64,000 nt of DNA from Octopus vulgaris (lineage: Eukaryota), in NCBI GenBank assembly GCA_951406725.2, contig OX597833.1, positions 45,012,001 through 45,076,000 on the forward strand, read 5' to 3'. Made by a program: the position numbers and the translations under genes. Below are positions 1 to 61,677 of the stretch, piece by piece (positions within the stretch are counted from its first letter, which is position 1; every line of letters starts with the position of its first letter). The notes beneath the pieces are model-generated. The model was not told the origin of the DNA and ran no database searches. It saw only the letters and a list, made by a program, of their open reading frames with translations.

Positions 1-52
<52 letters not shown>

Positions 53-60
53 GTGTATAT

Positions 61-118
<58 letters not shown>

Positions 119-153
119 GTATATATATATATATGTATATATATATATGTATG

Positions 154-202
<49 letters not shown>

Positions 203-223
203 TGTATATATATATATAATATA

Positions 224-272
<49 letters not shown>

Positions 273-327
273 GTATATATATATGTATATATATATGTAT
301 GTATATATATGTATATATATATGTATG

Positions 328-358
<31 letters not shown>

Positions 359-520
359 ATATATATATGTATATATAGTATATATATATGTATATATATA
401 TGTATATATATATGTATGTATATATATATGTATATATATATGTATGTATATATATATGTATATATATATGTATGTATATATATATGTATATATATATGTA
501 TGTATATATATATGTATATA

Positions 521-553
<33 letters not shown>

Positions 554-587
554 TATGTATATATATATGTATATATATATGTATATA

Positions 588-642
<55 letters not shown>

Positions 643-643
643 G

Positions 644-738
<95 letters not shown>

Positions 739-831
739 GTATATATATGTATATATATATGTATATATATGTGTATATATATGTATATATATGTATATAT
801 ATATATATATGTATATATATGTATATATATG

Positions 832-862
<31 letters not shown>

Positions 863-957
863 GTATATATATGTATATATATATATATATATGTGTATAT
901 ATATGTATATATGTATATATATATGTATATATATGTATATATATATGTATATATATG

Positions 958-1053
<96 letters not shown>

Positions 1054-1273
1054 TGTATATATATATGTATATATGCATGTATATATATATGTATATATAT
1101 ATGTATATATATATGTATATATATATATATATGTACATATATATATATGACATATATATGTACATATATATATATGTATGTATATATGTATATATATGTA
1201 TATATATATATGTATATATATATGTATATATATATATATGTATATATATATGTACATATATATATATGTATGT

Positions 1274-1311
<38 letters not shown>

Positions 1312-1414
1312 GTATATATATGTATGTATATATGTATATATATGTACGTATATATGTATATATATGTATGTATATTTGTATATATATGTATGTATATATG
1401 TGTATATATGTATG

Positions 1415-1447
<33 letters not shown>

Positions 1448-1484
1448 GTATGTATATATATATATGTATATATATGTATGTATA
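1..1484. repeat. Compound (TA)n/(TATG)n/(CA)n microsatellite
   Basis: Directly visible low-complexity tract; source of the spurious Y/I-rich ORFs. Confidence 0.97.
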
Positions 1485-1858
1485 TCATCATCATCTCCAT
1501 CATTTAGCGTCCATGCTAGCATGGGTTGGACGGTTCTACTGGGGTCTGTGAAGCCAGAAATCTTCATCAGGCCCAGTCAAATCTGGCAGTGTTTCTACGG
1601 CTGGATGCCCTTCCTAACGCCAACCACTCCGAGAGTGTAGTGGGTTATTTTTACGTGCCACCCGCACAGGTGCCAGACAGAGCTGGCAAACGGCCACGAA
1701 CGGATGGTGCTTTTTATGTGCCACTGTCACGAGGACCAGGCGAGGCTGGCAACGGACACGAAACGTTACAGTGCTGGCAACGGCCGCGAAACGGAAGGTT
1801 CTCTTACATGCCACCGGCACTGGTAACACATCTGCAATTTGCATTGATCGATTTCGAT
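1485..1858 (-). mobile_element. 5'-truncated RTE LINE 3' UTR fragment (SINE-like copy)
   Basis: Reverse complement matches the 3' UTR and (GAT)n tail of the RTE copy at 37780-38260 (catcatc...tagcgtcc...catgctagcatgggttggacggttc). Confidence 0.85.
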
Positions 1859-2006
1859 TATGTATATATATATGTATATATATGTATGTATATATGTATA
1901 TATATGTATATATATATATATATGTATTTATATGTATATATATATATATGTATATGTATGTATATATATATATATATATGTATGTATATATATATGTATA
2001 TGTATG

Positions 2007-2037
<31 letters not shown>

Positions 2038-2068
2038 GTATGTATATATATATATATGTATGTATATA

Positions 2069-2118
<50 letters not shown>

Positions 2119-2140
2119 TATATACACATATATATATACA
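1859..2140. repeat. (TA)n/(TATG)n microsatellite
   Basis: Directly visible. Confidence 0.95.
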
Positions 2141-2390
2141 CGTTGTAGTGGCTACATTTAAGAAATGATAATAGTAATATCACTTCAATATAAATATAGC
2201 CACACTTCGGGTTAAAGATAAAAGCAATAAGATAATTAATTAGATAAATTAATAAATATACATATATAATCTTGTAAAATACGAAATATCTTAAAAATAT
2301 ATTCTTTATATGTTTATATATTCTCTTATATATATTTTTATATATCCTTTTATATATTTCTTATATATTCTTTATATATATATGTGTGTG

Positions 2391-2472
<82 letters not shown>

Positions 2473-2473
<1 letters not shown>

Positions 2474-5400
2474 TGGCATTGTGAGGAAGGTGCAGGCTGC
2501 CATTTTGCACACACACCAAAGACCCTGCCACATAAACATGAAACAGGGCGGAAACCACCTGCCAAAAGGAAAAGAAAAGGACTACGCACCACATTCCCCA
2601 AAACGGAGGTATGCAGATGTAGTGCATGTTACAAACCATGAACATGTTATTGAAAGGGCAGCTGCTGAACAAGAATCTTTTTTGTGCATGGCACAAAAGA
2701 TTGCACAGCAGCTAACCTGGCTCCATCAATCTCAAATTCACAGATGGGACTATACACAATACACAAGACCACCACAGCGAATGGACCCAAGGTGGACACC
2801 ACTGGCAATAACACAGACATCACATTGATGCTCTTACTGAACATCAGAGGACTGCTAACACTCAGTAACTGGACAAAAATCTCTTTCTTGAGAGACCTTG
2901 TTGCATGCAATCAAGCCTTATGCATAGCACTTATAGAAACACACCTGAAACCAGACATAGCAAATGTGGAAATATACATACCATAGTATGTTGTATTACG
3001 GACCAACAGAAAAGAAAGTAGTGACGGTGGAGTTGCTATGTACATCCGCAAGGACCTCACACCCCAAGTCCTTTTGTCATACTCAAATTTGGTGTGTGAC
3101 ACACTAATTGTACATATAAGGCAACTTGGTGTAGTTATATGTGCTACATATCGCCCTCCAGATGCTCCAAGTCATGTCGGCAGGTTTGAAGACTGCCTTA
3201 TAAAAATAGAAGTTCTAGTCACATTAGAACAACACATAAGTGTACTTCTTATGGGAGACTTCAATCTGCCCAATGTCAGCTGGCCCGAGGGCCTTTCTCC
3301 CTCCAGGAATGACATGATGTGAACGAGGGCAGGCGAGGTCCCTCCTGAACTTCATCAACACTCTATACATGGAGCAAATAGTACTCCAACCAACCAGGGC
3401 AGGTAACATACTGGATCTCTGCTTTACAAATAATATGGATTTCAACCATAATGTGAAAGTGACACAGACGCTACACTCGGATCACAACATGGTAGAACTG
3501 ACCATGTACAGGCCAAAGAAAAGCATGGACATGCTGCCTACAAGAAACTCTCAGAATCTTTCCAGCTTGAACTTCCATAAGGCAAACTGGAAACAAATTG
3601 AGAAAGAGATCCTCAAACAAAACTGGCCTAAATGTCTCTCCTCGCCAGACATCGACATGAAACTTCAACAATACATGTCTGTAATGCAAGCCATATGCGA
3701 CAAATGTATCCCAGAGAAAAAGGCCACTGTACACAAGAACAAAATCCCCAGAGAGAGGAAAATTCTAATGAGACGGCTTACAAAAGTTTCAAATCACCTA
3801 AACAAACAAATTAAAAGCAGTGAAAAGTCGCGCCTGAAAATAAAACTGTTGGAAATTGAAAAATGTCTGCAAGTCTCCCATGAAAAAGAAAGAGCCGACA
3901 AAGAAGCCTGGGCGATAGACAATATAAAATCTAACCCCAGAGCTTTCTGCAAGTTTACGAAAGAAACAGCAATTCAAAAGTATTTTCGCTCCACCCCTAG
4001 GGCACTTTCAAGTCAGCAATCCAACTGACTTCTTTACCGCTGCAGATATAAAATCAGAGGCAATGATGATTGATTACATCAATATAAAGGAAGACGATGT
4101 AATAAGGGCTATAGATGAAATGAACCCAAACACAGCTACTGGCCCCGATGGATTCCCAGCAATCCTTCTAAAAGTAAGTGAGTCCTAGCAAGACCACTGC
4201 AGTTCCTCTTTCAGAGCTTCCTTGAAGCTGGCAAACTCCCAAGAAAACTGAAGGAAGGCAAAATATGCCCCATTCATAAAGGAGGTAGCAGAGCGGAGGC
4301 CAAGAACTACAGACCTATCTCTCTGACCTCACACATCAGCACGGTCATGGAATGAATAGTCAGAAGGAAACTAATCGCCTTCCTTGAAGAAAGAAACTTG
4401 CTGCCTGACACCCAACATGGTTTCCGACCAAGAAGAAGCTACCTAACTCAGCTCCTACAACACTATGGCTCTGTGCTGAAACAACTGCTCAACCACTCAA
4501 ATGTGGAAGTCATATATCTTGACTTTGCAAAGGCCTTTGATAAAGTTGATCATGGAATGATATGTCACAAACTGCGTGATCTTGGCATAGTTGGAAAATT
4601 GGGAGAATGGCTTCATGACTTTCTGAAGAATAGAAGTCAGGTGGTAGTAGCCAATGGGGCCATCTCCAATAACACGCAAATAGTGAGCGGTGTTCCACAA
4701 GGCACTGTTTTGGGACCACTACTGTTCATAATGGCCCTCTCAGACATGCCCTCAGCCACGCAGAGAGCCATGATCACAAGCTATGCAGATGATACAAAAG
4801 TTTCACAGGTAATACAAAACCTTGAAAACGCTATGCCCTTTCAATGTGAGCTTGACGAAATATACAAGTGGGCTGAAAAGAATAGCATGCAGTTCAATGC
4901 TGAAAAGTTTCAAGCTTTATGCTATCAGCATGCAAAACTAAATGCAATACACTGGACCTGGAGGGACTGCAATCCCAGAGGCACAATCAGTGCGTGACCT
5001 GGGTATTTACATGAGTAATGATGCCACCATTCATGTGCATGTTGCTAAATTGGCAATGAAATGTAGGCGGCTGACCAGATGGATTCTTAGAGCTTTTAGA
5101 ACAAGAGACCAGGAAACCATGATGGTCCTCTGGAGAACACTTGTCCTAAGCCACTTTGACTATTGCTCTCAGCTATGGTCACCAACCAGTGTCAAATCAA
5201 TCACAGAACTTGAGGCAATCCAATGAAGCTACACGAAGAAGATAGCCTCTATGCAGAATATAAGCTATTGGGAAAGACTCAAGAGATTAAGACTCTATTC
5301 CTTAGAGCGTAGGTGAGAAAGATATGCCATAATATACATCTAGAAGATCCTGAAAGGACTTGTTCCAAACTTTGGCATCGAGAGTTACACAAATACTAGA

Positions 5401-6290: not shown

Positions 6291-6850
6291 AGAGTTTGAT
6301 ACAGCTACCCTCATTTGCACCTCTTGCCATGAGGTAGGTCCATCTGTGACTCTAAGAAGAAAAGGGAGAGGCTAATAAGGATGGAGAAGATGAAAAAGAA
6401 GCAAGGCTAATAAGGCTAATAAAGAACTTGGCTCGTTTACAGATTTAAGAACTCTCTCTGTTGAACTCTAGATCTGAATTTTTCAGCAGTTGTAAGCATG
6501 TGCCTAAGTTCCTGTTGAAGAATTGGAAAGTGCCTCCCCAACCAGATTAAATAACTATACTATGGGCTCTTAGCCACTTTTCTAGTTTTATAATTTATAG
6601 TCTAAGGAAAATAACTCTTATTTCCCTTTTGTTTCTTTCTGATTATTTTCTCATTTTCCAGTTTTTATATATTCTTCCTTCTCACTTTTTCTCATGTCCC
6701 ATTTTTAGTTTTGTTATGCCTTGTGGACAGTGTATAAGGATCGTGCTGGAATACCAGACATGCTATAACACAATGTTTGGCATGTTCTCAGCACATGAAA
6801 CTAATAAAAGCACATAAAAACATATATTGTGTTTCTTAAATAATAATTAT

Positions 6851-6899
<49 letters not shown>

Positions 6900-7186
6900 T
6901 AAATATTTAAATGTTCAGTATGTTCCTAGTAGTATGCTGATAAAACACATTCACTGCCTATAGTTACCTGACATCATCCATGGTAATTACTCAATTGTAG
7001 CTGGATCTATCTCAGGAAATCCTCAGTGTATGTTGAGTACAAAACAGATGATGGAGACAGAAAATGTAATACATGGGAAACTTTATTGCTCACAGAACAA
7101 CCAATGCACATTGTTAGAAATGGCCATTGTGAGCAATAAAGTTTCCCATGTTTTCCATCTCTGTCATTTGTTTTGTGTGTGCATGC

Positions 7187-7225
<39 letters not shown>

Positions 7226-7605
7226 CACTACCGTCAGAAATTAATTAGCACCCTTGATTTGCTCTTCACTCAAGGTATGTGCTGTCACCTAGTGGCCATA
7301 TCTCGAACTATTGCTTTGTTGCGAGTTCACTGTTGCGCAGAACGATGACGTAACTTTGTTTGCAGAGCAGTTTGAGAGCCTACACCCTTATGATCTTGAC
7401 ATAGCAGTGCAACAACAACTTGGAGTGCGGATGCAGACAAATCTTCCTTTGTTTAATAGATATAGGTAGCGCCTCGCAAGGACCGAAATCACACCATACT
7501 AAGTTTTCTCATCGCGTAAGACGTTTTGAACAGCTCATAGGTTAATTGATTTAACCTATTTAATGTAGAAATTTGAGAAGTGCTAATTAATTTCTGATGC
7601 AAGTG
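7226..7605. mobile_element. Tc1/mariner-type MITE (second copy 51719-52086)
   Basis: TIRs cactaccgtcagaaattaattagcac / gtgctaattaatttctgatgcaagtg, flanked by TA. Confidence 0.75.
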
Positions 7606-7691
7606 TATATATATATATATATATGAATACATACATCTGTATAGGCAAATAATATAAATATATCTTAATATATATATCTATCTTTTTTCAG

Positions 7692-8029
7692 CCCCCTTTA
7701 AAAGATGGTTATGATACAAACCTTCTGGATCTCGCCTGTGATAGTAATAATGTTAACATGGTCGAGTTGTTACTGAAATCTGGTGTGGTAGAGGTGGGTT
7801 ATGACACAGCTCTTCATCTGGCATGTTGTGTTGGGCACATAAACTCAGTAAAGTTGATTTTACAGTCTGAACGAGACAGCAATGTTATCAGGAACAGTGG
7901 TTTCACAGCACTTCACATAGCCTGCGATAAAAGATTTACTGATATAGTAGAGTTGTTAATACAGTCTGGAGCTGACATTAATAAAAAGGATAAATATAAT
8001 GAAACATCCCTACATTGTGCAGTTCTACG
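7692..8029 (+). CDS. Ankyrin-repeat exon of a partial MIB2-like paralog (338 bp, phase 0 to 2)
   Basis: tttttcAG acceptor at 7690-7691 and GTAAGT donor at 8030; open frame with TALHLAC / TALHIAC / TSLHCAV ankyrin motifs; paralogous to exon 51000-51634. No downstream exons seen after the gap. Confidence 0.8.
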
Positions 8030-8463
8030 GTAAGTCAAGAATAATCCAGAATATTTGCATCTGGTTCTCTTTTATTTTTCTGTTTTGCCAAAATTTTAAT
8101 TTTTAACAAATCACTTAATGCCATCATTCCACTATGGGGCCTCACTCTTAAATCTACTTAATTAAGAAATCATCATCATCATCATCACTACCACTTTCAT
8201 CCTTATCATCATCATTGTCACCACCATTACCAATCCCTGGAACAGTCACCTTCAGAATTAAATACTTCAGAGTATTAACTGTTGTCACATTGTTTCAAGT
8301 TAAATTCCTACCAGGAATTGTCAGTTTAAGGGGTCAGTATAATTTATTCCAGTAAAGTTAAGCTGTGCTCTACTTTTTTCCTATTCTTGTGTCTAAGCTA
8401 GAAATTATGATTATTATTGTTCAAAGTTCAAGTTTCACTGAAGTCACTTGCCTTTCATTATTT

Positions 8464-8665: not shown

Positions 8666-8884
8666 ATACAGAGTAACACTACGATCGTTTCATGGCTGTA
8701 CAATTCATAATAATTCGAGTTACAGTCAATCTTCAGGTGAATTAAATATTTATTCAGCGAGGTTTATCAATGAACTCATTGATAAACCTCGCTGAGATAA
8801 ATATTTAATTCACCTGAAGATTGACTGTAACTCGAATTATTATGAATTGTACAGCCATGAAACGATCGTAGTGTTACTCTGTAT
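8666..8884. repeat. Near-perfect ~108-bp-arm palindrome, each arm carrying a hammerhead motif (Penelope pLTR-like)
   Basis: atacagagtaacactacgatcgtttc...tgaac|tca...gaaacgatcgtagtgttactctgtat. Confidence 0.9.
8811..8873 (+). ncRNA. Minimal type I hammerhead ribozyme motif (mirror copy 8677-8739 on minus)
   Basis: cac-CTGAAGA-stem II (tgactgta...tacagcca)-GAAAC-gatc-GTA-gtg; self-complementary helix III ACGATCGT as in Penelope-type dimeric hammerheads. Confidence 0.75.
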
Positions 8885-12034: not shown

Positions 12035-13518
<1,484 letters not shown>

Positions 13519-13519
13519 A

Positions 13520-15819
13520 AATTGAGATAGGAGTTGTAAATTCAACCCTCCATGGGATAACATATATTCAATATACTGCTAGTGAAGTACCCAACAAAGT
13601 TAATACATAAATGTTAAGAATTGCGATGCAATTAATTCATTTACCTTATTATATGTGTGAAGGTAAAAAATTTTTTTACCACAAATTAATAATACAAAAT
13701 AAGAAAATGGAGAAATACATCTAAATCAATTATCAACTATCAGATAATACCAAATCACATACTTTATTAAACCACTACATAAGAACATTAAGGTCAAACA
13801 TAAAAATATATAACAAAACAGTGTACACGAAGGAGTAATACAATACAATAAGTACAATACTTATAAGAGGATATAAATGAATAAATATAAATATACACTA
13901 CATCTTACAGCTGTTTCGGTCATGCAGATAAGTATGTCACATTGTACCTATATTAGCCATGTGTAGTAGGTCAATATGAAGTTATAAATGAGACATTTAC
14001 AAAAATATCCTAAGGCCTCTTCGGAGATTCTGAAGTACAAACCAAATTACATATATACTCATATAAGTGTGAGTACATACCCATAATAAATCATATACAT
14101 ATGAGTGCATATACTCATACTCTTATACATACACATATACATATACATAATAATACAATTGTCTTTTTTACGGTTGGTTTGTTGAGAAACATCCACACGC
14201 GCACACTTGCAAATGTGCCCACATACGCACATACACAGCTAAATCACAACATAATATAAGAGATACCAGCCCACACATACACACACACACATGCTTACAT
14301 ACAGATCCACTCACATATATCCATAAATTCGTATATGCAATCATATATACATTTATACCCAGACGACGAATGTAATTATCATATGATGCATAATTAAAAT
14401 AACACCGTATATTTCGTAAACAAATTATCTTACCACTAAAACTTCTATATCGTTACATTTCCACTATGTTTCTATTCAAATATTTACTAAATTACAAACT
14501 ACATGTTTGCCCATCAAAGGACGTATAAATACATACACAATAAGTTAACAGAAATTACTATTAATTAAGATATAAGTAAATTAATTATAAATAGTCAAAA
14601 TACGTTATTATCCTAAGATGCATAATCAAAACAACACCGTACATTTCGTAAACAAACCATCCTACCACTGAAACTTCTATATCACTGTATGTAAGCATGT
14701 GTGTGTGTATGTGTGGGCTGGTATATCTTATGTTATGTTGTGATTTGGCTGTGTATGTGCATATGTGTGCATGTTTGCAAGTGTGCGCATGTGGATGTTT
14801 CTCAACAAACCAACCGTAAAAAAGACAATTGTAATTTAAATTTAAAAGTATAAGCCAATCAAATTCTAGCGCTCGTTTCGTAACTATTTCGGAACTTAAT
14901 ACTATATTGGTGTCACAATTGAAATTATTAATTTACAATCGTATGTACATCTATGCATTTGTGGAAATTAATATCATGTAAACCGAATGACTTGACTGCT
15001 TATTTTGTATGTGCAGATATTTAATGCTTTGCATAGTACTGTAGTATTATGTTGGTCCTTAGTTTTGCTACTATATTGCTAATAATGTGATATATATATT
15101 GTTTTATTAGTATTGGTATTATTAGTAATAAGAATAATGATATTGGTAGCATTAGTGATATTGATAACAGTATTGATGTTAACATTAATGACTTTTTCTA
15201 AATTAATATAAATTAATATAATGTACTATTGACTCTGTATATCTGAATTTAAGTATGAATATGTCTATGTTCTCTACGTTGTAATATCTTAATATTAAGT
15301 TGAAAAATTGTAACATTGAATATGGAACATATATATGTTTATTGATTTATATTATTATGTATATGTATATGTGTATGTATAAGAGTATGAGTATATGCAC
15401 TCATATGTATATGTATATGATTTATTATGGGTATGTACCCACACTTATATGAGTATATATGTAATTTGGTTTGTACTTCAGAATCTCCGAAGAGGCCTTA
15501 GGATATTTTTGTAAATGTCTCATTTATAACTTCATATTGACCTACTACACATGGCTAATATAGGTAAAATGTGACATACTTATCTGCATGGCCGAAACAG
15601 CTGTAAGATGTAGTGTATATTTATATTTATTCATTTATATCCTCTTATAAGTATTGTACTTATTGTATTGTATTACTCCTTCATGTACACTGTTTTGTTA
15701 TATATTTTTATGTTTGACCTTAATGTTCTTATGTAGTGGTTTAATAAAGTATGTGATTGGGTATTATCTTGTAGTTGATAATTGATTTAGATGTATTTCT
15801 CCATTTTCTTATCTTGTAT
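13520..15819. mobile_element. Non-coding foldback element A: ~460-bp inverted arms (13692-14152 / 15350-15819), each with a hammerhead motif; probable non-autonomous Penelope-like derivative
   Basis: Arms are near-perfect reverse complements; nested IR 14155-14300 / 14690-14832; tail 13520-13690 homologous to 21580-21745 and 61500-61640. Confidence 0.78.
15483..15609 (+). ncRNA. Hammerhead-like motif with CCGAAGA core variant and ~90-nt stem-II insert (mirror copy 13902-14028 on minus)
   Basis: atct-CCGAAGA-ggcc...ggcc-GAAAC-agct-GTA-agat. Confidence 0.65.
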
Positions 15820-15835
15820 AAATATATATAGCTGG

Positions 15836-18817
15836 CTTTAGACATACTTTCTGTGCCCTTGAAGTATTTGCAAAGGGAGGCCGTGCCTTCCTCGCAAGCC
15901 TGAGTGATACGCACGGACCGGTTTCGAGATTATTGTCTCTTATCAACGGGCGGTAACCACCAGGTCACGATGTTATTCTTTATTACCCATTAAGGGCTAC
16001 ACAGAGGGGACATTACAATACAGGACATGGGGTACATATTGTTACAGAACTCCCAGAAAGCTTGCTACGGAATCCCACCTGCCGTCGCTCGAACTCGTAC
16101 TCGGGATCCCAACAAGTCGAGCGACGACGATTGACCAGGCTCGAATCGATCGGCGAGTGTTCGCCACGGAACTCGGAGAAGAGAGAGATAACAACAACAA
16201 CAACAACAACAACAGCAGGAAGAGACACAGAGATACAGCGGAAGGCAATTGGCTACGTTTAACAACTAGTTTATATGACTATTACAACATCAAATACATT
16301 TAAAGATACATCAGGTAAATACAAGCAAGTAACAACACATCAAATGCAATAACAACAGCATTTCAAGAGTACACGTCGAATTAAACAACAAGTCAATACA
16401 TCATACAGTCCGGAGACAACAGTTCTGTTTCAAATCACATTAACATTACAGTTCAAAGGACATTAAAGGCATATACAGTTCAATGTTCATTACACAGTTC
16501 TCTTTTGCCTTAACAGTTCTGTAACACATATCAGCACAGTTCACATTGTTCTTTTTTTACTGTCTCATTTCTTTTACATTTCAATACATCGATTCTTTTT
16601 CCTTCTTTCTCTTCACATATCAATACAACAATTCACGTACCGTTTAGTTCCTACTATAATAGCCAATGCCTCATATTGTACCCCATCTCTCTTAGCACCG
16701 CTAAATCCAACTGCTAAACTGCTTGCCTTGAATACCAAATCCTCACTGCTAAATCCAACCGCTCGTCTTGACTCCCAAATACCGACTGCTAAAACCTCAC
16801 TTGCTCTGTCCTCCTGCTTTCTCACTACTCCAATCTCTCTCTGCTGGAACTCCCTCAGTTCCTTAATCTGTCCTCCTCAGCCCTCAACATTTCTCTCACT
16901 GTCTCTCACAAACTGAACTCTAATTCAACTGAAAGGGCCAAAGGTCCCCTAAAGGCCATCATTCTTCCGTGAACAAAGGACTATAACTTTGTATTCTAGA
17001 CTTTCAGTCGCCAAGTCAAGCAAAGTAGGTCGCCAGATCTGTCCTTAAGTTGAACCACAACAATATAATAAAAAAATCGAAAAGTATGGTATGACAATGA
17101 ATTATTTATAATGAATTAATGAAATGTCTTACGAGTTCCCCAAGCTCGCAGTTTCATTTAAATTACCATTGTGTTATTCAGGGCATTCATCTGTTATGTA
17201 TTCAAGTATTTCCTCCTGTTCTATAATCCCTGGCAAACTCTCGTACCGAACGTATTGCATTATGCATATACCTGTATACACTTTGCTCAGTTTCATCACT
17301 GTCTCTCTTTCCACAATCGCCGCCTTCACCTGGACATCAAACATTTCCGGATTTAATTTCACTCTGGTTAAATTTTTTATGTTTGCCAACTTCTCAATTT
17401 CCTTGTCCTTCTGGTACAACATTACCGCTTTCAGATTTCTTCCTTTTGGTCTACTTCCTTCCCTACATACTCTCAGCCAATCATCCACTTTACTTTCCCA
17501 TTTTTTTCCCTCCTCCTGCCGCCTTGAAACTTCACTCGCTTTCGTTTCAGTATCTTTCTCTTCGTGCGTTCGAACCTCTATCTCGTCAGTAGTCTTCTTT
17601 TTCGTTTTTTTCCCTTTTTTTTGTTGTACTTTAGGTGGTGATTCCACCCGCGTTCTCTTTCTATCTTCTTTTCCTTCTGTTCTTTCCTTTTCTTCCTCCT
17701 TCACCAACTCGTTACCACTTTCCACATTATCTGTAGTCACGATTTCCTCTTCCACATACGCATTTTGTAACTCCTCCGTCGAAGCCTCCAGTGTTATCGT
17801 TTTCTCCTGTACTTTCTTAGCGGACACATATCCTTCATGTGGCCTCTAATTTTGCATTTGTAACACACTGGGGGTCTCCCCTCCACCACGACTCTAAGAC
17901 GTGTCTCGTCGGGTAACACCAACTCCTCTGGGATGTTATACAGGTCTGGCATGGTTATGTGAATCAAAACCTGCACCGCATAACCCCACCACTTTACTTC
18001 TTTAGACTTATCTACTTTCAATGTATCACGCTCTCTTTGCAGTTGAATACCACTGCCGCTAAAATTCTTTCCATGTTCAGCTCCGGTGAAATTTTACTGA
18101 TTCGTATTCTTACTGCCCTTTTTCCACAATCGCTAGGTAGTAACACCCATTTTTCAGTTTTCAATATTTTCGTGGCATTCCTCTTCGCTTCGTCTTCGTT
18201 TTTAAAATGAACGACTACTGTTGCGTATTTTCTACCTCTATTGTAGAAGGTAGTTTCTCCTTCAATTCCCTGTAGACACCTCTCGATTTCCTCCGCCTCT
18301 GTCACTTCTATTTTCTTCGAAGCCACGCTCCACATTCTGTATGTTATAATACGCTTCTCTGCTTCTTTCGCTTCGTCTTCAGTTGGTGTGACCCTCACAC
18401 AATCACCTTCCTTCTTGAAGCTGTTGAAGTATCTCTTCAAATTCTCTTTCTCGACGACCACTTCTTCCAACTGCAGTTCGCTCGCAGCCAGACCCTTGCC
18501 TGCTGCTCCTGCATATGTTTGGGCTTGCATACTCGAAAAAAACCTCCAACAACTCTCCACGCCGTAACAGCTTCCAATAACGAAATCGAACTCACAACCG
18601 CGATACACAATAAACGTAATCCAAAATATCCGACACAAACAAAAAAACCTCCAGGTCGTGATGAAAGACAAGGCCTGCTTTGCAAATATATAAGAGTTTT
18701 TTCTAGTGACGTCTGCCACTGATTTCGAGAAACTGACTGTAAGCATTATTAAATCTCAGAGCGAGATGTAAACAGTAACCGCTCAACAATGTAAAGTATA
18801 AAAGCCATCTCAATATG
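15836..18817 (-). mobile_element. Gag/ORF1-only retroelement (Tx1/L1-like ORF1 with CCHC knuckle, frameshifted); no RT; 3' AATAAA plus hammerhead-like motif
   Basis: ORF pieces 18018-18746, 17794-18021 (RVVVEGRPPVCYKCKIRGHMKDMCP) and 17174-17827 (K/E-rich) join through frameshifts. No EN/RT motifs in 15836-17170. GCTGG direct repeat at 15831-15835 and 18818-18822. Confidence 0.7.
15910..15952 (-). ncRNA. Degenerate minimal hammerhead motif
   Basis: Minus strand cgcccg-TTGATAA-gaga caataa tctc-GAAAC-cg-GTC-cgtgcg; stems I and II pair; core differs from CTGATGA by two transitions. Confidence 0.6.
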
Positions 18818-18978
18818 GCTGGAGCACCGCCTTTAGTCGAGCAAATCGACCCCGGGACTTATTCTTTGTAAGCCCAGGACTTATTCTATCGGTCTCTTTT
18901 TGCCGAACCACTAAGTTACGGGGACGTAAACACACCAGCATCGGTTGTCAAGCTAGGGGGACAAACACAGACACAAAA

Positions 18979-19020
<42 letters not shown>
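18818..19020 (-). mobile_element. 3' half of a family A SINE (split copy)
   Basis: Reverse complement matches 11810-11983; the head half is at 21770-21951. Confidence 0.85.
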
Positions 19021-19039
<19 letters not shown>

Positions 19040-19041
<2 letters not shown>

Positions 19042-20832
19042 CTACAAAATTAGAGAATGGAGAAACATACTTAAATCAGTAAAACATCAACTATCCGATG
19101 ATACTCAATCCATACTTTAGTACACCATTACATATGAGTAAAGGCAATATATAAAATGAAATGAGATACACAGTAATAGTAAAAGTAAAAAGATAAAGAG
19201 ATATAAGTAAAAAATTTCAAATATAATATGCAAATAAATCAAAACTGACAGCTGTTTCGGCAGTGAGGACAGTCATACCTCATTTAACCTATAAGCCATA
19301 AAGGCAGGTATAAATGAGGCATTAACAAGGATGCCCCACGGCCTCTTCAGAGAATTAAATTAAATTTGATATAATAGTGAAAAATATTATATAATCATAT
19401 ACATATAAATATAAATATAAAAATAAAAAAATACTAGCTCTAGATAATGTAATGATATTGTATAATATGTAATATATGAGAGCCTTTTGTGAGTTTGGTG
19501 GGTTTAGGTTGAGATTATAGGTTTTTTGTATGTGTTTATTTGGAAGGTTTTTATTATATATTTGGTCTTTTTGTACTCACCTTAATTTGTATCTTATGCT
19601 ATTCACTGATAAACCTTTTTCATTTTTTTTCATTTTCTCATTTACATGCATTTTGCTTTATAATTATTACCAGCCTCATATATTTAGTTTATATCTATAG
19701 TCCTCTGGATCTGTACTTTAAACTATCCTTCCATACATATTTACTTTCAACAATATAAAATATATATATTCACTTTATTTATTTTTATTTATTTCCCATT
19801 TTATTGTAATATTATCAATCTTTGCATCTAGTCTTCTATTCATTTATTTATTTGCCTATTTAAGTGTAGATGTTTACATACATATCAAGTCATCTAATTT
19901 GTTACCTATTTATTTTTTACTTATTTACTTATACTGGTGTAGTTTTATACATACATATCTATCATTTATTTTTATTTAATTTTAATAATATATGAATACA
20001 TATATACTAGTTTGTACTTATAATTATGTGTATAACCGTATTTATTCCTTCGTATTTATTCCTTTTTATTTATTTTATCTCTTTTCATCTTAAGTCTTTA
20101 TAATATAAAATTTATTTAAAATTTCTGTGATGTTCTCATAAGCGTTTACATTAATACTTCCCTTCTATTCTTTAATGCCTAAACTGGTATATTATGGCAC
20201 TATATTTATTAAGTTAATAAGTGACTTATTTATAATATTTAAATTAATATATATTTTATATTTTATATTTTATAATTTAGCGTACTTAAAATCATAACAA
20301 ACTTACGATAAACCTAACAACCGTATGTTTACTCTGTAACAAACCGGTGTTATAAATTTTAAGTTACCCATGAAATAATTATCTGAATTAGTAACATACT
20401 GATATTTAAAAATATATTTATATCTAAATTAAATATTTTATAGAATGCATGGATGGTTCTTTTTTTGTTATTGAGGCTCAGTTATAATTTTGAAGGACTA
20501 AATGTTAGCATAGTTGCTTCCCTTTTTTGTTTATCTAAGTGCTAGTTGTTGCTTGTGATTGTGTATGTGTATAAGTCTATGTATATACATATAACTATGT
20601 GTGTATGTGCGTTTGATCTGTAGATGCGTGTGTGAATATTGGCGTTCCTTGACTAACCAACCGTATAATTTTCTTTTGTGATTTAAATTTCAAACCAATA
20701 GCCAATCGAATTAATCTAAATTTTCTTTACCTAGTGGTCAGCATTTCTTAACTCATAGTTATTTCGATCTTGAAAGGATGGACTTGGTGCTAACTTAACT
20801 GTATCTATTTTTAGTATTTTTTATTATTATTA

Positions 20833-20882
<50 letters not shown>

Positions 20883-20968
20883 AGTAATTTTTATTAACTT
20901 TTATAGCTTTAGAATTTTATGAACTGTACCACGGATTTAATTATTATTTTTCATCTCCATATGTGTTA

Positions 20969-21011
<43 letters not shown>

Positions 21012-21745
21012 AAAACTATTAGCCAAATATGTATAATATCGGTACTTATTAATATTAATATATACACTGTTATATATTTTGTTTTATTTTGTTCTGTTTA
21101 CCTTCCTTTTTGTACAAATGTGTATTATATTATATAAGTGTAGCATTATGATGTATAAGTTTTTATATTTTACATATTTTATATTTTACATTTTTATATT
21201 TTTATATTTATATGTATATGATTATATAATATTTTTCACTATTATATCAAATTTAATTTAATTCTCTGAAGAGGCCGTGGGGCATCCTTGTTAATGCCTC
21301 ATTTATACCTGCCTTTATGGCTTATAGGTTAAATGAGGTATGACTGTCCTCACTGCCGAAACAGCTGTCAGTTTTGATTTATTTGCATATTATATTTGAA
21401 ATTTTTTACTTATATCTCTTTATCTTTTTACTTTTACTATTACTGTGTATCTCATTTCATTTTATATATTGCCTTTACTCATATGTAATGGTGTACTAAA
21501 GTATGGATTGAGTATCATCGGATAGTTGATGTTTTACTGATTTAAGTATGTTTCTCCATTCTCTAATTTTGTAGTATTAATTTACGGTAATATTATTACC
21601 TTTACCCATTTAATACAATAGATGAACTGATTGCTTGACAATTTTTAACATCTATGTATTAATTTTGTTGGGTACCTATCTAGCAGTATATTGGATATAT
21701 ATTATCCCATGGTGGGTTGAATTTTCAACCCCTATCTCATTTTAT
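19040..21745. mobile_element. Non-coding foldback element B: ~385-bp inverted arms (19040-19425 / 21190-21576), each with a hammerhead motif; same family as element A
   Basis: Arms essentially identical in reverse complement; shares internal motif aaccaaccgta...tagccaatc and terminal tail with element A; sits inside the TA tract of a SINE. Confidence 0.8.
21262..21373 (+). ncRNA. Hammerhead motif with long stem-II insert (mirror copy 19243-19354 on minus)
   Basis: ct-CTGAAGA-ggc...gcc-GAAAC-agct-GTC-ag; core intact, stem I short. Confidence 0.68.
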
Positions 21746-25806: not shown

Positions 25807-26254
25807 AATATATCAATTTCTACCAGATCAGTTACCCAGGCAGAGTCAGTCAATCCCATTGTTGTGTGGAACATGTCCAGCCTATCCTTTCTCAGTCACT
25901 ACTTTGCTTCAAATTTAATAACTGACTTTCTAGCAGCTAATACTAGATCTACTTCTTGAAGTAGCTCAGAGTTTTCATTGCGTATATAAGTGCTTTGTTG
26001 AGGAGGATGGAGTTAATAGAGGCATAGAAGCTGGATATATCCAACTGTGCAAATTTAATTTTCTTTGCTATAATTCTATCAAACCAATTGATTGCCTCAT
26101 ATGAACTGTACCAGAGATTTAGTTTTGTCATGTTCCTAAGTGTAGGTATACATTTATCAATAATGTGTTTGCTTATTCTACCTAAGTCAGACTTCGAAGG
26201 GTATATTAGCCTAATAGATATGTTAGTGTTAACTAACAAAAATACTAACTCCAC
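25807..26254 (-). pseudogene. Penelope-like (Naiad-type) RT N-terminal fragment
   Basis: IRLIYPSKSDLGRISKHIID...W...AINWF...LDISSFYASI...LLNKAL, continuing with stops into MFHTTMGLTDSA. Confidence 0.78.
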
Positions 26255-26989: not shown

Positions 26990-28370
26990 CAGTGGTTTTT
27001 GGGACTGGTCTGAGAGATCAGAATGGTGTGACTGTGTGTCTCTGTGCACGTCTCTATGTGTGTGTATATAAACATGTGTTTGTGTGTTTGATTGGTCCCA
27101 GAGTTTATTGTGGTGTGTGTAAATGGGTCTGTGTGTGTTTTATATTTGGTAGGATGGTGTGTGTATATGTGTGCACGTTTGTGTGTGTATGAGTGTCATT
27201 AATATTTGTTAGGGTGTTGTGTGTGTGTATGTGTTGTTCCCATGTGTGTATGTGTGTGTCTGTGGATGTGTGTACATGTGTGTGTGTGTTTGTGTGTGTA
27301 CATGAGTGTGAGTGTTTGTGTGTGTCTGTCTGAATATGCTTGTCTTGTTATAATTGTCCTGGTGTTGTGTGTGCGCATATGTGTGTATATGTGTTAGTTC
27401 GTGTGTATGTATGTGTGCATCTGTGTGTGTGCACGTGTATGTTTATGTGTTGTTTTGTGTTGGTGGGGATGTTATGTGTGTGCATGTGTGTGTGTGTGTG
27501 AGTGAGTATGTGTGTGTCTCTGTCTGAGTATGTTTATGTTGTTTTAATTGTCCTTGTGGTGTGTGTGTGTGAGGGTGCATATGTATGTGTGTGTATGCAT
27601 GGGTGTGTATGTGTGTGTAAGTGTGTTGTATTTATCAGGGGTTCTGTGTGTATGCATGTGTGTTTTGTGTATGTTGGTGCTGAGTATGCATTTGTGTGTG
27701 TGTATATATGTGGGTATGGTTTATGTAGTTTCCGTGTGTGTGTGTGTGTGCTGCATTTGTGAGTGATTTGTTTTGTTTGTATTGTTAGTGCAGTATATGT
27801 GTATACGTGTGGGTGTGTTTGTGTGAGTGTGTCTATGTGTCTTGTATTTGTCGGGGAGGTGTGCATGCTTGTGTGTATGTGTGTTTGTGAGTATTGTGGT
27901 TGTTAGGATTGTATTGTGTCTATATGTGTGTGTTTTTTCTTTTGAGTGTGTGTGTGTGATTTTTTTACTGGGGAATGGACATATTGTGTGTGTGGGTTGT
28001 GTTGTATTTGAATGTTTGTGTGTGTATCTGTGTGTGTGTGTGGATGTGTTTGTGTGAATGTTGTTTGTAATTGTCGGGGTGGTGTGTGTAGGTGTGTGCA
28101 TGTACATGTTTACATATGTGTGTATGTGTGTGTGAGTGTTGGTTATGGTTGCTAGAATCGTATTGCAAGTGTATATATGTATGTGTTTTTTCATGGCGTG
28201 TGTGTCGGTTTGTGCTCTAGTGTGGGGATATTGTGTTTGTGCATGTGTGTATATGTATGTGTGCGCGTTTGGGTCGGAGGTTTGCATTGTTTTTGTGTGT
28301 GTGTGATTTTGTATATCTATATGTGTTTCTGTGTGTGTTTGTTTTGGATGTTTACCTGGGGGTATGTTAG
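26990..28370. repeat. Degenerate TG-rich low-complexity tract
   Basis: Interrupted (TG)n with strong G/T strand skew. Confidence 0.9.
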
Positions 28371-28379
28371 AGTGTGTTG

Positions 28380-30241
28380 ATAAGGACCTTAGAGAATTTC
28401 TTAAGGACTTTTATAATTTGAGCATCTTTTTTGAGAATAATCCTAAAGTGGCAAATTTCCTGGATGTCACTCTCGACCTGAATACCAGCTTGCACTACCC
28501 CTTCCGAAAACCAAACCAAACTTTCCAATATATCAATGTTTCCTCAAATCATCCCAAATCAACCATCAATAGCATCGTAACTGCAATTTCTATCAGAATC
28601 TCAAACCTATCGGCGAATGAAAACATCTTTAATCAACACGCTCCAATATACAACAATGCCTTGAAATTGAGTGGGTTCACAAATAACATTGAATACATAC
28701 CTGATACCAAATTAAAAATTAAATTGGCCAGCATGGTCAGTGACGATATGAAACGGATTTCGGATGGCAGAGGCTCCCCACATAGTTCCCAAGGAGCTAG
28801 CAACAAGCTAATAATGACCAATATTTGTGCTGATAAAAGAAGCTTTGGAAATAGGAAAAATGAATGCGATGTGGTTGGTCTTGTAAATGGTAACCACGTT
28901 AATAAGGCTAATAATGAGATTTGTAAGGATGAAAATACCATGGACGATAACGGTAATGGGAGGGAAGGGGTTACAAAAAATATGAATCATAAATGTGAAC
29001 TAAGGTGTAAAGTTAGGTTTAGGTCTAATGAAGGTGGTAATAGAAATAAGAATAATACTAGTAGTAATAGAGATATGAATATTAGTAATAGATACAGGAG
29101 TGCCCTTACATTTAGTACATCAAGCCGAGCAACATATTGTAATCCCACTATTAATACTAAGCCTAGGATTCATCAAGTTACTTGGTTTGCCCCTCCCTTT
29201 TCATTAAGGGTGAAAGGTTTACCAAAGCTATTTTTTAAGTTATTGAAGGAAAATTTCCGAAAACACCATAAGTATTATTCAATATGTAACAAGTCAACAA
29301 TCAAGCTGGCCTACTCAGTCACTCCCAATGTCGGATCTATTATTGCTTCGTTGAACAGAAGTAAAATAAGGCGCTATAATGATAGAAATGATGACAGAAG
29401 CTTTAATGGAAAATTCATTAAAGACATAGAAGAGGGTATTAATATTAATAGTACGTCTTCTGAAATCGATTGTGAAGGGCGTGTTGGGGTGACAAATAAT
29501 GTAAATAGTAGAGATAATCATAATACTGATGTCGGTGATGATATTAGTGTTTATAATGATTATCAGGGTGGTAATGATGGTGTTAATAGTAGTGGAAATG
29601 GTAATAAAAATATTAGTAAAAATAAAAATGAAAATAAGAAGAATGGTAATAGTAGGAATAATAATAGAATAATTATACCAGAAAATAGTACGAACGATGG
29701 TGTAGATGATATGGTGGACCCTAGTACTGGGAGTGCGCACGGTTTTGGAGTTATCAATAATACAAGACCCCATAGCAGGTTGAAGAAATCTAATTTTAGG
29801 GACCCAACTGAATGTCTGATTAGCGGAAATTGTCACCAGGAAAATGTGGTTTATAAATGTAGTGTTGAGGCTCAAGGAGGCCAGAGAAAAATATATATCA
29901 GAAGCACAGTAGACTTTAAGCAGAGGTATCGATCCCACCTGGGCTCCTTCAACAATCCTAAATATAGGACCTCTACAACACTGGCATTACATATTAACGA
30001 CCTCAAGAAAAGGAATGTTGAATTTAAAATATCATGGGCTATCCTTGCGCATGCCTACCCTTATAGAATTGGGTCCACTAGATGCAGTTTATGCATAAGG
30101 GAGGCATACACTATATTGAAAAATTACAACAACGCAGTATTAAATAAGTTCACTGATGCAATACCGGCGTGTATGCATAAGATCCACTCAACGTTCTATA
30201 GGAAATTTAGAAATAGGAAAAGCAATAAAAGTTTGAGCTAA
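28380..30241 (+). mobile_element. 5'-truncated Penelope-like (Naiad-type) ORF: RT thumb/CTE plus C-terminal GIY-YIG endonuclease, frame still open
   Basis: NFLDVTLDL...SSNHP...YNNALKLSGF; WFAPPFS; CLISGNCHQENVVYKC...IYIRST..FKQRY..H..SF...CSLCIRE...LNK...CMH. Confidence 0.88.
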
Positions 30242-45060: not shown

Positions 45061-45360
45061 GAAGTTGTTTAGATCTAAACTTGATTGGTGGCATTACTTA
45101 CTCTCCTACAATGTTGCTACAAATTTTGATGTAACATTTTTCTACTGGATCAAATCTCAATATTTTTATGCCAAAATATAGCTAGGGACCAGTCCTCTTC
45201 AAAAATGTTAACAGTTTTCAATTTGGTTAAGAACTGAATTAGCGACAAGCTCTGAAAGATGCTGCATGTGAGTAAATTGCGGCCTTAAGAATATTATTCA
45301 ACTACTACTGTAGTTGAAAGGTATCTGTCTCACATAAAAAAAAAAAATTCTGAAACTTAC

Positions 45361-45570
45361 CTCATCTAAAATTTCAAGATGTTTACTTTCAGAGTGAAAC
45401 ATTTTCTCCCTCAATGCAATATGCAAGCAATTGTCACCATCTTTATTTATAGCGTCAAGATCTGCTCCTTTTAATACTAACATCTGCATGATCTCAAGGT
45501 TACCCTTAGAAACAGCCTGGAGGAATGGTGTCTGATCATGAGTGTTACGAATATCAAATTCCACTTCAGC
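45361..45570 (-). CDS. MIB2-like E3 ligase exon (ankyrin repeats; 210 bp, phase 0 to 0)
   Basis: acaaAG / GTAAGT; AEVEFDIRNTHDQTPFLQAVSKGNLEIMQMLVLKGADLDAINKDGDNCLHIAL...ILDE. Confidence 0.9.
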
Positions 45571-46027
45571 CTTTGTGGAAATGAAAATAAAAAGTAAAAA
45601 TATCATTGTAAAATGAGTGTTTTTACTGGATATTTGATCAGACTGTTACTGTGGATTTGATGTGGTCAATAAAACAAACCATTCATAGGTTGCACTGTAA
45701 GATGGTATGGATGTACATTAGAGACATGATAAATTTATGAAAATGACAAAAACAGGTTGTTTCAGGACAGTCTACTTTTATCCCTAGCTATATACCTAAC
45801 TCACAGTAAGTTATAGACTATTTGAGCTAGAAAGAACAATTAATTAGCAAATGAAATCCATTGAAGAAGAATCATTTGTCCAATGTATACTTTTGATGTT
45901 GCTATATCATTAAATGATCCATAAAATTGCTTTGTTGGTTAGAGTCAATGTTAAAATGATACCTACTTAGATGTTATATATTTGTGTGTTTCATACATTC
46001 AATATATAAATTTGTGTGTTTAATATA

Positions 46028-50349: not shown

Positions 50350-50999
50350 TGCTGCTGCTGCTGCTGCTACTACTACTACAGAAAATCTGCTTGCCCTTCC
50401 CACCCAAAGGAAAGTTGAAGGCTAATCTTCAAAAACAACAACAACAATGGCTTCCAATTTTGACACAAGGCCAGCAATTTTAGAGGGAAGGAGTTAGTTG
50501 ATTACATCAATTCCAGTACTTGACTGGTACTTTATTTTACTGACCTAGAAATAATGAAAGGCAAGTGACTTCAGTGAAACTTGAACTTTGAACAATAATA
50601 ATCATAATTTCTAGCTTAGACACAAGAATAGGAAAAAAGTAGAGCACAGCTTTCTGAATTAACCCCTTAACTTTACTGGAATAAATTTCTATTGACCCCT
50701 TAAAATGACAATTCCTGGTAGGAATTTAACTTGAAACAATGTGACAACAGTTAATACTCTTAAGTATATAATTCTGAAGGTGACTGTTCCAGGGATTGGT
50801 AATGGTGGTGACAATGATGATGATAAGGATGAAAGTGGTAGTGATGATGATGATGATGATTTCTTAATGAAGTAGATTTAAGAGTGAGACCCCATAGTGG
50901 AATGATGGCATTAAGTGAGTTGTTAAAAATTAAAATTTTGGCAAAATAGAAAAATAAAAGAGAACCAGATGCAAATATTCTGGATTATTCTTGACTTAC

Positions 51000-51634
51000 C
51001 GTAGAACTGCACAATGTAGGGATGATTCATTGTATTTATCCTTTTTATTAATGTCAGCTCCAGACTGTATTAACAAGTCTACTATATCAGTAAATCCTTT
51101 ATTGCAGGCAATGTGGAGTGCTGTATAACCACTGGCACTGACCATATTAATGTCAGATTTGGACTGTATTAAAAAGTTTGCTATATCAGTACATTCTTTA
51201 TCGCAGGCTATGTGAAGTGCCGTGTAACCATGGCTGTTGACAATATTGACATCAGCATCAAACTTTACTAACAACTTTACTACATCAACAAATTTTTTAC
51301 TGCAAGCTATGTGAAGAGCTGTGTCACCACTGGTACTGACCATATTAATGTCAGATTTGTATCGTATTAACAAGTCTGCTATATCAGTAAATCCTTTATC
51401 GCAGGCTATGTGGAGTGCTGTGAAACCATTGTTCCTTACAACATTGCTGTCTTGTTCAGACTGTAAAATCAACTTTACTGACTTAATGTGCCCAACACAA
51501 CATGCCAGATGAAGAGCTGTGTCATAACCCATCTTTACCACACAAAATTTCAGTAACAACTTAACCATGTCAACATTATTACTATCACAGGCGAGATCCA
51601 GAAGGTTTGTATTATTACCATCTTTTAAAGGGGT
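51000..51634 (-). CDS. MIB2-like E3 ligase large ankyrin exon (635 bp, phase 0 to 2)
   Basis: tttcAG / GTAAGT; five TALH(L/I)AC repeats plus SSLHCAVL; splices in frame to five downstream exons ending in two RINGs. Confidence 0.92.
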
Positions 51635-52083
51635 CTGAAAAAAGATAGATATATATATTAAGATATATTTATATTATTTGCCTATACAGATGTATGTATT
51701 CATATATATATATATATACACTTGCGTCAGAAATTAATTAGCACTTCTCAAATTTCTACATTAAATAGGTTAAATCAATTAACCTATGAGCTGTTCAAAA
51801 CGTCTTACGCGATGAGAAAACTTAGTATGGTGTGATTTCGGTCCTTGCGAGGCGCTACCTATATCTATTAAACAAAGGAAGATTTGTCTGCATCCACACT
51901 CCAAGTTGTTGTTGCACTGCTATGTCAACATCATAAGGGTGTAGGCTCTCAAACTGCTCTGCAAACAAAGTTACGTCATCAGTGAACTCGCAACAAAGCA
52001 ATAGTTCGAGATATGGCCACTAGGTGACAGCACATACCTTGAGTGAAGAGCAAATCAAGGGTGCTAATTAATTTCTGACGGTA

Positions 52084-52131
<48 letters not shown>

Positions 52132-52327
52132 GCATGCACACACAAAACAAATGACAGAGTTGGAAACCATGGGAAACTTTATTGCTCACAATGGCCGTTT
52201 CTACACATTGTGCATTGGTTGTTCTGTGAGCAATAAAGTTTCCCATGTATTGCATTTTCTGTCTCCATCATTTGTTTTGTATTCAACATATTCCTGAGAT
52301 AGATCCAGCTACAATTGAGTTAATTAC

Positions 52328-58513: not shown

Positions 58514-58516
<3 letters not shown>

Positions 58517-60419: not shown

Positions 60420-60775
60420 GTTGTGCAAGATTTTTTAAGTGAAATCGTGTGATGAAACAGATATTGTTGTATTTCAGAATGGTCATTTTGCCAGTTTAGC
60501 CAATAAAAACACATGCACTATATATTTGGTGTTACTTTGCTTCAGTGTTCTTTATTTTTTACGTTGATCTTAATCTTATTTCGGCCAGAGTTCTTTCGTC
60601 ACACTCCTGTGACCGCATCAGTGGTCCTTTGCTTTCTTCTTTCTTATTTGTGTGTCTCTCCTTACTAACCATCAGCCATTTTGTATTTCTATATTTCAAA
60701 TATATAGTGTGTGTGTTTTTATTGGCTAAACTGACAAAATGGCCATTCCGAAATACAATAATTATATTGTTATTA
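60420..60775. mobile_element. Small foldback element (~65-bp arms) with hammerhead-like motif 60576-60628 on minus; related to 63180-63655
   Basis: Arms gtatttcagaatggtcattttgccagtttagccaataaaaacac / gtgtttttattggctaaactgacaaaatggccattccgaaatac; ggacca-CTGATGCG-gtcac aggagt gtgac-GAAA-gaac-TC-tggcc. Confidence 0.6.
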
Positions 60776-61023
60776 TTGATAAACATAATAATAATAATAA
60801 TAATAATATCAATATTGATAATAATAACAGTATTTTTATTAATAATTGATTGTTATTTATCTGTCCATAAGCATAGACGTGTTTATATGTTCCAATGTAT
60901 TTATATATGTATATGACATATGGTATATCTACTTGAACCTATTGTTTAATTGTGTTTATTTATGTATTTTACGCATGTAAAGAGTATATACACTTTGCTT
61001 ATGTATGTATATATGTGTGTGTG

Positions 61024-61077
<54 letters not shown>

Positions 61078-61173
61078 GGCAATATGGTTATTTGTTTATT
61101 TTTTCTATGTATATTAAGTAATACATGTATCATGTTTAATGTATTAATATTAATATATCTAAAGTTCCTTATA

Positions 61174-61307
61174 ACCTCTGACGAGGCCTATGGTTATATA
61201 TATAAGTACCTTATTTTGAAATGCCTACAACCTCAGTATGTTGACACATATAGGCAATGAAAATAAAATTATCTACTTTTAGCCATAGGCTGAAACAGCT
61301 GTAAGAG
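61174..61307 (+). ncRNA. Hammerhead motif with long stem-II insert, in a third member (about 61080-61640) of the A/B family
   Basis: ct-CTGACGA-ggcctatggtta...tagccataggct-GAAAC-agct-GTA-ag; downstream tail tttctccattttcttatttgtatta...cagtatattggata matches elements A and B. Confidence 0.72.
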
Positions 61308-61677
61308 ATGATTTTAACGATTTCATTAATTTATATTATGACTTATAATCTGAATTCTTATCTTATAATTTATATGTATTGAATTATAAGATATATATGT
61401 ATGCTATTAATGTTGTCATTTTGTTAAATGAATAAATAATCTAACATTATAATATTTGTAAGTTGATGAACAAACTAATTTTGTTTCTCCATTTTCTTAT
61501 TTGTATTATAAATTTATGGTAAAAATATTTCTTTACCTTCACCCGTTTAATACAATAAATGAGTTAATTGCATTGCAATTAAAAAACATTTATGTATTAA
61601 GAATCTGGGTACTGTACCAACAGTATATTGGATATAAAACCCTATATTACATTGTACTATATATATATATATATATG

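Follow-up and report, generated by a model that had tools for sequence, protein, structure and literature searches.

Hammerhead-bearing foldbacks in the genome of Octopus vulgaris are very probably 5'-truncated ends of coding Penelope-like elements

Among Penelope-like elements (PLEs) with a C-terminal endonuclease (EN+), the Hydra clade as set out by Craig et al. 2021 (PMC8557442) is marked by DKT in place of DKG, by RWK and by CxCx5C, CxxC and CxH, and only one octopus member, Hydra-1_Obim of 2.5 kb, is listed there. The same paper calls open both the way in which the tandem and inverted insertions of PLEs are made and the way in which microsatellites are targeted. For another PLE, studied in vitro, it has been reported that both strands of the target are cut and extended, that two internal RT start sites bound the tail, that a dimer is predicted for the protein and that the hammerhead cuts only with the protein and is dispensable for insertion (PMC11167929). 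The minimal hammerheads of PLEs are described as having a helix II of 6-8 bp, and the dimer is their expected active form (PMC4209133). PLE repeats that move cargo in trans (PMC3846280) and Terminon-like ORF arrays (PMC6431247) have also been described, and the non-LTR retrozymes (PMC7229834; bioRxiv 10.64898/2026.07.22.740005) consist of short units arranged head to tail, each with a ribozyme and none with an ORF.

The window considered here is a stretch of 64,000 nucleotides of Octopus vulgaris (GCA_951406725.2, contig OX597833.1, positions 45,012,001 to 45,076,000 of the forward strand). A sequence-only reading of it had reported two foldbacks and a one-armed third copy, with arms that are near-identical within an element and diverged between elements, and self-BLAST of the masked window bore this out, the foldbacks A and B and a third related end, C, all being present. 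The arms of A (13692-14089 and 15422-15819) are 98.0% identical, and by global alignment are longer, extending to about 14158 and 15352; those of B (19047-19383 and 21233-21569) are 100% identical over 337 nt, compared with 64% identity between the arms of A and B. The tails of A and B are 79% identical and that of C, which carries a small internal deletion, is 75-79% identical to both, the length being about 170 nt in all three types. The copies in the window had been described as lacking an ORF, and the longest ATG ORF within A, B or C is indeed 56-58 aa. The proposed layout of arm, hammerhead and tail also stands, but the separate internal region does not in A, where this stretch consists of A's own 3' region in both orientations with deletions and holds no separate sequence, and family similarity in C begins near 60755 and not at the proposed 61080.

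A abuts a (TA)n tract (12035..13519), the target site at its tailed end. The tail itself lies on the left arm on the minus strand (13520..13691, 172 nt, between two fixed outer end sites) and is followed by the tailed arm (13692..14158, minus strand), the putative 3' end of an A-family PLE, with the left hammerhead at 13906..14024 (minus strand), which has a CCGAAGA core, a 100-nt helix II domain and one substitution at the base of helix II. Three more pieces of A-type 3' non-coding region, joined across deletions, occupy 14154..14683 on the minus strand (matching L210 at 7960-7630, 7368-7255 and 7758-7670), and the inverted arm without a tail, 5'-truncated and ending at the short site, runs from 14686 to 15819 on the plus strand with the right hammerhead at 15487..15605 (plus strand). 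In B the tailless inverted arm comes first (19040..19433, minus strand), with its outer end joined to (TA)n and the left hammerhead at 19247..19350 (minus strand). Then, all on the plus strand, come a stretch identified as the 3' non-coding region of a 5.6-kb coding PLE (19431..21265, 97% identical to L031-L034), which begins about 330 nt past the ORF stop and overlaps the inverted arm by 3 nt; the right hammerhead (21266..21369) with an 85-nt helix II rod, a palindromic helix III and predicted cleavage after 21369; the region between the ribozyme and the short end site (21370..21577); and the tail (21578..21745), which ends in (TA)n in the window and in tandem copies continues into a 5' UTR and ORF. 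C (60755..61660, plus strand) is a lone 5'-truncated end that appears to belong to a third related family, with its hammerhead at 61178..61303 (plus strand).

The parent of B was sought by a genome-wide BLAST of arm plus tail, which gave 40 loci at 99-100%. Same-strand pairs among the B-matching loci are spaced 5,575-5,604 nt and, among 20 fetched loci, window positions 19434-21745 map at ~97% directly behind an ORF for RT and a C-terminal endonuclease (in L031-L034, L042, L043 and L048), which upholds the suggested link to Penelope-like elements. The coding unit has 5,575 nt and a likely intact ORF. It consists of a 142-nt 5' UTR, the ORF (about 947 codons), a non-coding stretch of about 2.1 kb and the hammerhead, followed by 200 nt, the short end site, the tail of about 170 nt and the next 5' UTR, and elements of the family stand in partial tandems elsewhere in the genome.

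The single ORF of the B family has RT and after it, at the C terminus, a GIY-YIG endonuclease, with RWR, DKT (HSDKTN), YRDD, a CxCx5C linker, CxxC and CxH and without CCHH, the linker and endonuclease motifs having been read by eye. Because searches of the RT against Pfam and PDB sequences gave no RT or GIY-YIG match, the clade is assigned by motif, the reference Hydra sequences having been compared by eye, and on that footing the parent of B is a PLE with the marks of the Hydra clade. The order of RT and GIY-YIG, DKT, CxCx5C, CxxC and CxH are as described for that clade, as are (TA)n targets, a hammerhead near the 3' end, the ACAG/CTGT-type helix III of several members and the inverted 5'-truncated copy noted for Penelope-13_HM (PMC8557442). 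The Naiad clade was rejected, having an N-terminal endonuclease and DKA. The unit differs from the Hydra-clade elements of PMC8557442 in its length (5.6 kb against 1.1-3.0 kb in the table of that paper), in its 2.1-kb 3' non-coding region and in having RWR at the aligned place of RWK, as do its two closest homologues. The protein has 125 homologues, mostly of about 700 aa, whereas it has itself, with an Asn-rich linker, about 947 aa; a search for longer homologues found none, and among named proteins the closest match, from Octopus sinensis, is 100% identical and covers 38% of the query. In rotifer PLEs, too, Asn-rich inserts have been described, as have long spacers ahead of the 3' pLTR (PMC3846280).

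None of 30 assembly loci of the B family has an unbroken ORF. The frame breaks common to most assembly copies of this young PLE (L032, L081-L110) sit in homopolymer runs, and both are absent from the contigs of all four short-read runs, one contig covering 2,902 nt of the ORF region. They are therefore read as long-read errors, and the family is likely autonomous with a protein of about 947 aa, the short-read contigs being the evidence for intactness. On this reading the shared breaks are a systematic assembly error of a kind that would hide intact elements.

A matches other A-type loci piecewise, as a minus-strand tailed arm and three deleted pieces followed by a plus-strand region. An endonuclease 63-78% identical to that of B lies upstream of A-type sequence in L114 and L124, and an A-type tail (94% identical to A in L111) runs into the start of an RT in L111 and L131. 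In L209 a C-type arm has RT (53%) and endonuclease (34%) after it, both of which are also given for L160. To judge from these matches, related coding PLE families are the source of the ends A and C, and with 85-91% identity between copies these are the older families and B the younger. No intact ORF was seen among the A- and C-type loci examined, and none of 26 A tails reads through into an ORF, against 7/30 for B, so that the A or C families may include non-autonomous sub-lineages.

The outer ends of these elements are fixed: there are two sites, separated by about 170 nt, and (TA)n adjoins both. Of 30 loci with a B tail, 23 end in (TA)n and the other seven read on into the ORF; (TA)n is found at every terminal B tail (23/23) and every matched A tail (26/26), and the inverted partners of B end at the short site, likewise in (TA)n. 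Independent short-read contigs also show loose ends in (TA)n at each of the two fixed sites. Among 20 loci selected by their tail, 12 are paired with an inverted arm whose end lies at the short site. A sample unbiased with respect to the tail came from the first 100 motif matches, in which 13 pairs lay on opposite strands no more than 10 kb apart and were all taken, and here exactly one tail was present in each of the 12 readable pairs, in keeping with the one-sided tail of ~170 nt first described in the window; the tailless arm stopped at the fixed short site in ten and was shorter in two. If each arm chose its end independently, a hand calculation gives the chance of 12 one-tailed pairs out of 12 as 0.5^12 = 2e-4.

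The inner breakpoints vary widely, from unit position 1 to 5356 and with many inside the ORF, the two arms of a foldback usually differ in this respect and small overlaps are often present at the inner junctions. The distribution is not uniform: 12/27 tailless and 9/21 tailed arms stop within unit positions 4600-4730, a hot spot that adjoins a (TTA)n run, in a list that was compiled by hand and leaves out complex loci. Many insertions have a single arm, and no remnant of a second cDNA was seen at such insertions in any of eight junction stretches (five junctions). The arms of A differ at 8/459 sites, compared with 28/458 for the nearest other sampled copy, and share 22 non-majority variants; in B all three non-majority sites of one arm are common to the other. 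These figures agree with the earlier proposal that both arms derive from one source at each insertion, and variants common to both arms fit later gene conversion between them equally well. Informative sites are absent in several young B loci, and at 2/8 other A loci the arms are less alike than an arm and its nearest other copy.

The explanation that accounts best for these observations, and that is held to be highly probable as a whole, is that A, B and C are 5'-truncated 3' non-coding ends of coding PLEs, with foldbacks likely arising from nicking of both strands and priming at two sites. Its first part, the identity of A, B and C as ends of coding PLEs, is very probable; its second part, the twin-priming route, is favoured with distinctly less assurance. 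By that route the RT-endonuclease of the element would nick both strands of a (TA)n tract, each nick priming one cDNA at one of two fixed internal sites of the RNA. Both cDNAs would go toward the 5' end of the RNA, copying one and the same region of a single template, or of two transcripts from the same locus, and would stop early, often at the (TTA)n run, before joining head to head. Most would stop before the ORF and therefore leave non-coding stubs. The pairing of one long and one short arm agrees with the layout published for PLEs and with priming at two internal sites. Partial tandems forming pLTRs, a head-to-head inverted truncated copy, a tail on one of the inverted arms and two RT start sites bounding the tail are all features of Penelope/Poseidon insertions as described in PMC3846280 and PMC11167929. 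The tail of about 170 nt, however, compares with 30-40 in Penelope/Poseidon, and each start site is upstream of the ORF and not inside it as in Poseidon_Ac (same sources). Twin priming is not obligatory for insertion, because single-armed insertions exist and the eight junction stretches showed no second-cDNA remnant.

The strongest rival keeps the same parents and derives the inverted arm from self-priming on an antisense template, as put forward for rotifer PLEs (PMC3846280), or from template switching by a single cDNA. It accounts for the variants common to both arms and for the small junction overlaps. By itself, however, this rival leaves unexplained why the end of the second arm is a fixed point, 170 nt before the end of the tail, that is joined to (TA)n, and the arms usually differ in their inner breakpoints and form no perfect hairpin; the rival is considered rather unlikely, though a real possibility.

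A much poorer fit is the reading first offered for these copies, a distinct non-autonomous retrozyme-like family with a fixed foldback of 2-3 kb that uses the enzymes of PLEs. The absence of an ORF from the window copies, the excess of stubs over ORF-bearing copies and the rarity with which A tails run into an ORF speak in its favour, and type I hammerheads, non-coding copies and PLE ancestry are shared with non-LTR retrozymes as presented in PMC7229834 and bioRxiv 10.64898/2026.07.22.740005. Against it, A and B can be placed in their entirety on the 3' region of coding elements, no two foldbacks have a common fixed structure apart from the (TTA)n hot spot, and the breakpoints range over almost the whole unit and into the ORF. 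In contrast to the head-to-tail units of retrozymes, the foldbacks are head-to-head truncation products of a coding unit, and the tandem period of about 5.6 kb holds the ORF. The claim of a non-autonomous family has thus been abandoned as very improbable: the parents code for RT and endonuclease, no fixed ORF-less structure was found, and the copies are ends of coding PLEs cut short at varying inner breakpoints, the result that had been named beforehand as refuting it. As a family claim, truncated PLE ends are ordinary. A foldback-type DNA transposon or a MITE, in either case with long inverted repeats at its termini, or a palindromic assembly artefact, would suit the long, near-identical, AT-rich and TA-flanked arms, but is ruled out for practical purposes by the direct tandems that the family forms around the RT ORF, by arms that end at different points and differ by substitutions (8/459 in A) and by the recovery of both end junctions in independent short-read contigs.

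A hammerhead in each inverted arm had been claimed, and five cores, CYGANGA-GGCC...GAAACAGCTGTH, lie where they were placed, at the coordinates given above. The predicted order is a helix I of 2-4 bp, CYGANGA, helix II, GAAA, the palindrome ACAGCUGU and the cleavage base. Core nucleotides and helices I-III of a type I hammerhead are present, self-cleavage being a prediction. Helix II opens with GGCC and closes after 85-107 nt in the window copies, the domain having 100 nt in A, 85 in B and 107 in C and 85-122 nt across the family members; compared with 200 shuffles each, the rods score z = -2.3 (A), -5.5 (B) and -3.7 (C). Genome-wide the motif has 2,685 exact matches compared with 0 for the reversed control. 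An Rfam scan gave no match on any of the five long hammerheads, and its miRNA matches were discarded as (TA)n artefacts.

Among 13 A/B-type sequences 90.7% of cells are paired and seven pairs show two-sided changes, against 26-47% in slid controls; the pairs were counted on a named structure taken from single-sequence folds of these related sequences, which is thereby favoured. When five C types are added the figures are 79.5% and 12 pairs, the lower pairing arising because the C-type inserts fail to align with those of A/B types, which is also why RNAalifold did not recover the rod from the mixed 18-sequence alignment. Invariance of the core is partly by construction in the 12 of 18 alignment rows that came from the motif search. 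In copies found by BLAST both halves of the core are intact at 29/29 B, 20/29 A and 15/29 C loci, and single old copies therefore decay. The compensatory changes in the rod support, without proving, a selected fold, and the earlier suggestion of selection on the ribozyme is to that extent sustained between families.

The helix II domain of 85-122 nt contrasts with the stems of 3-7 bp and loops of 3-9 nt given for the Hydra clade (PMC8557442), and the long interrupted rod with the 6-8 bp of PLE minimal hammerheads (PMC4209133). In common with the latter, as described in that paper, are a helix I of 2-4 bp and a palindromic helix III suiting dimer folding, a G10.1-C11.1 pair (but G-U in C) and the occurrence of motif pairs on opposite strands; the A-type families are unlike them in having C at core position 4. 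Cleavage would act on long tandem transcripts, with the hammerhead working either as a dimer through the palindromic helix III or with the help of the element's protein. Foldback transcripts may also, as was first suggested, form dsRNA of ~400 bp.

The interval between A and B holds a gag-like repeat family (15830..18820, minus strand). Its CCHC ORF (17063-18820, minus strand) is broken in the window; the family ORF, of about 450 aa, has an RRM-like part, a CCHC knuckle and a coiled coil, the best 150 of 12,821 candidate protein matches having been scored. A 1-kb stretch (16040-17062, minus strand) is missing from most other copies, and the 3' module has a minimal U3-A8 hammerhead (15916-15946, minus strand) whose U3-A8 core recurs in 41/42 exact matches. 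Relatives (L225, L229, L269-L280) form tandem arrays with a period near 1.8 kb as well as partial tandems. In 12 fetched stretches there was no match to an RT, and a hammerhead stood only after the last unit of the arrays, in two of them; the 3' module also occurs in inverted pairs. The family resembles the trans-moved cargo of PLE repeats or the Terminon-like ORF arrays, as these are described in PMC3846280 and PMC6431247 respectively, and is possibly a protein-coding non-autonomous PLE satellite. It may be more novel than the foldbacks.

Several other features of the window were recorded. A 220-bp foldback (8666-8884, 98%) adjoins a 100-N gap, has a shorter hammerhead-like motif, CTGAAGA...GAAACGATCGTA, in each arm and is probably the end of another PLE family. 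Fragments of other PLE families, 30-50% identical to the protein of B, lie at 25821-26224 (minus strand), 28307-30241 (plus strand) and 53084-54651 (plus strand), the first two in inverted arrangement. Ankyrin-repeat exons, recognised by eye in translation, are found in an inverted duplication (6421-8463 on the plus strand and 50549-52865 on the minus strand, 90-94%) and at 45298-45645 (minus strand), and A and B may lie in or between ankyrin-repeat genes. An old palindrome (63254-63620) has 77% identity between its arms, and a Tc1/mariner-like element (58516-60141), judged by eye, has 222-bp inverted repeats and a broken transposase.

The elements belong to a known clade, within which they form new families whose ribozyme is a variant and whose tail is long. 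The literature search found no matching octopus hammerhead, extended stem II in a retrotransposon, Penelope twin priming or zinc-knuckle retrozyme, most subscription papers and bioRxiv supplements lying outside it. Within that scope the covarying helix II rod of 85-122 nt and the roughly five-fold longer tail look new. The young B family is well suited to testing how PLEs insert and target microsatellites, as its ORF is likely intact, its (TA)n target is defined and its two priming sites are far enough from each other to be told apart easily. It is also conceivable, as a tentative proposal that is doubtful in its full form, that the rod is a selected docking module through which the protein of the element gates cleavage, that the pairing of ends records two primings on one RNA by an RT dimer and that the same machinery spreads gag-only units with hammerhead tails; if this were true, the rod would mark out a class of PLE hammerheads that current descriptors do not see. 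Descriptors with a short-spacer limit, as in PMC8557442, would miss hammerheads with a long helix II, and the ribozymes of PLEs may therefore be undercounted.
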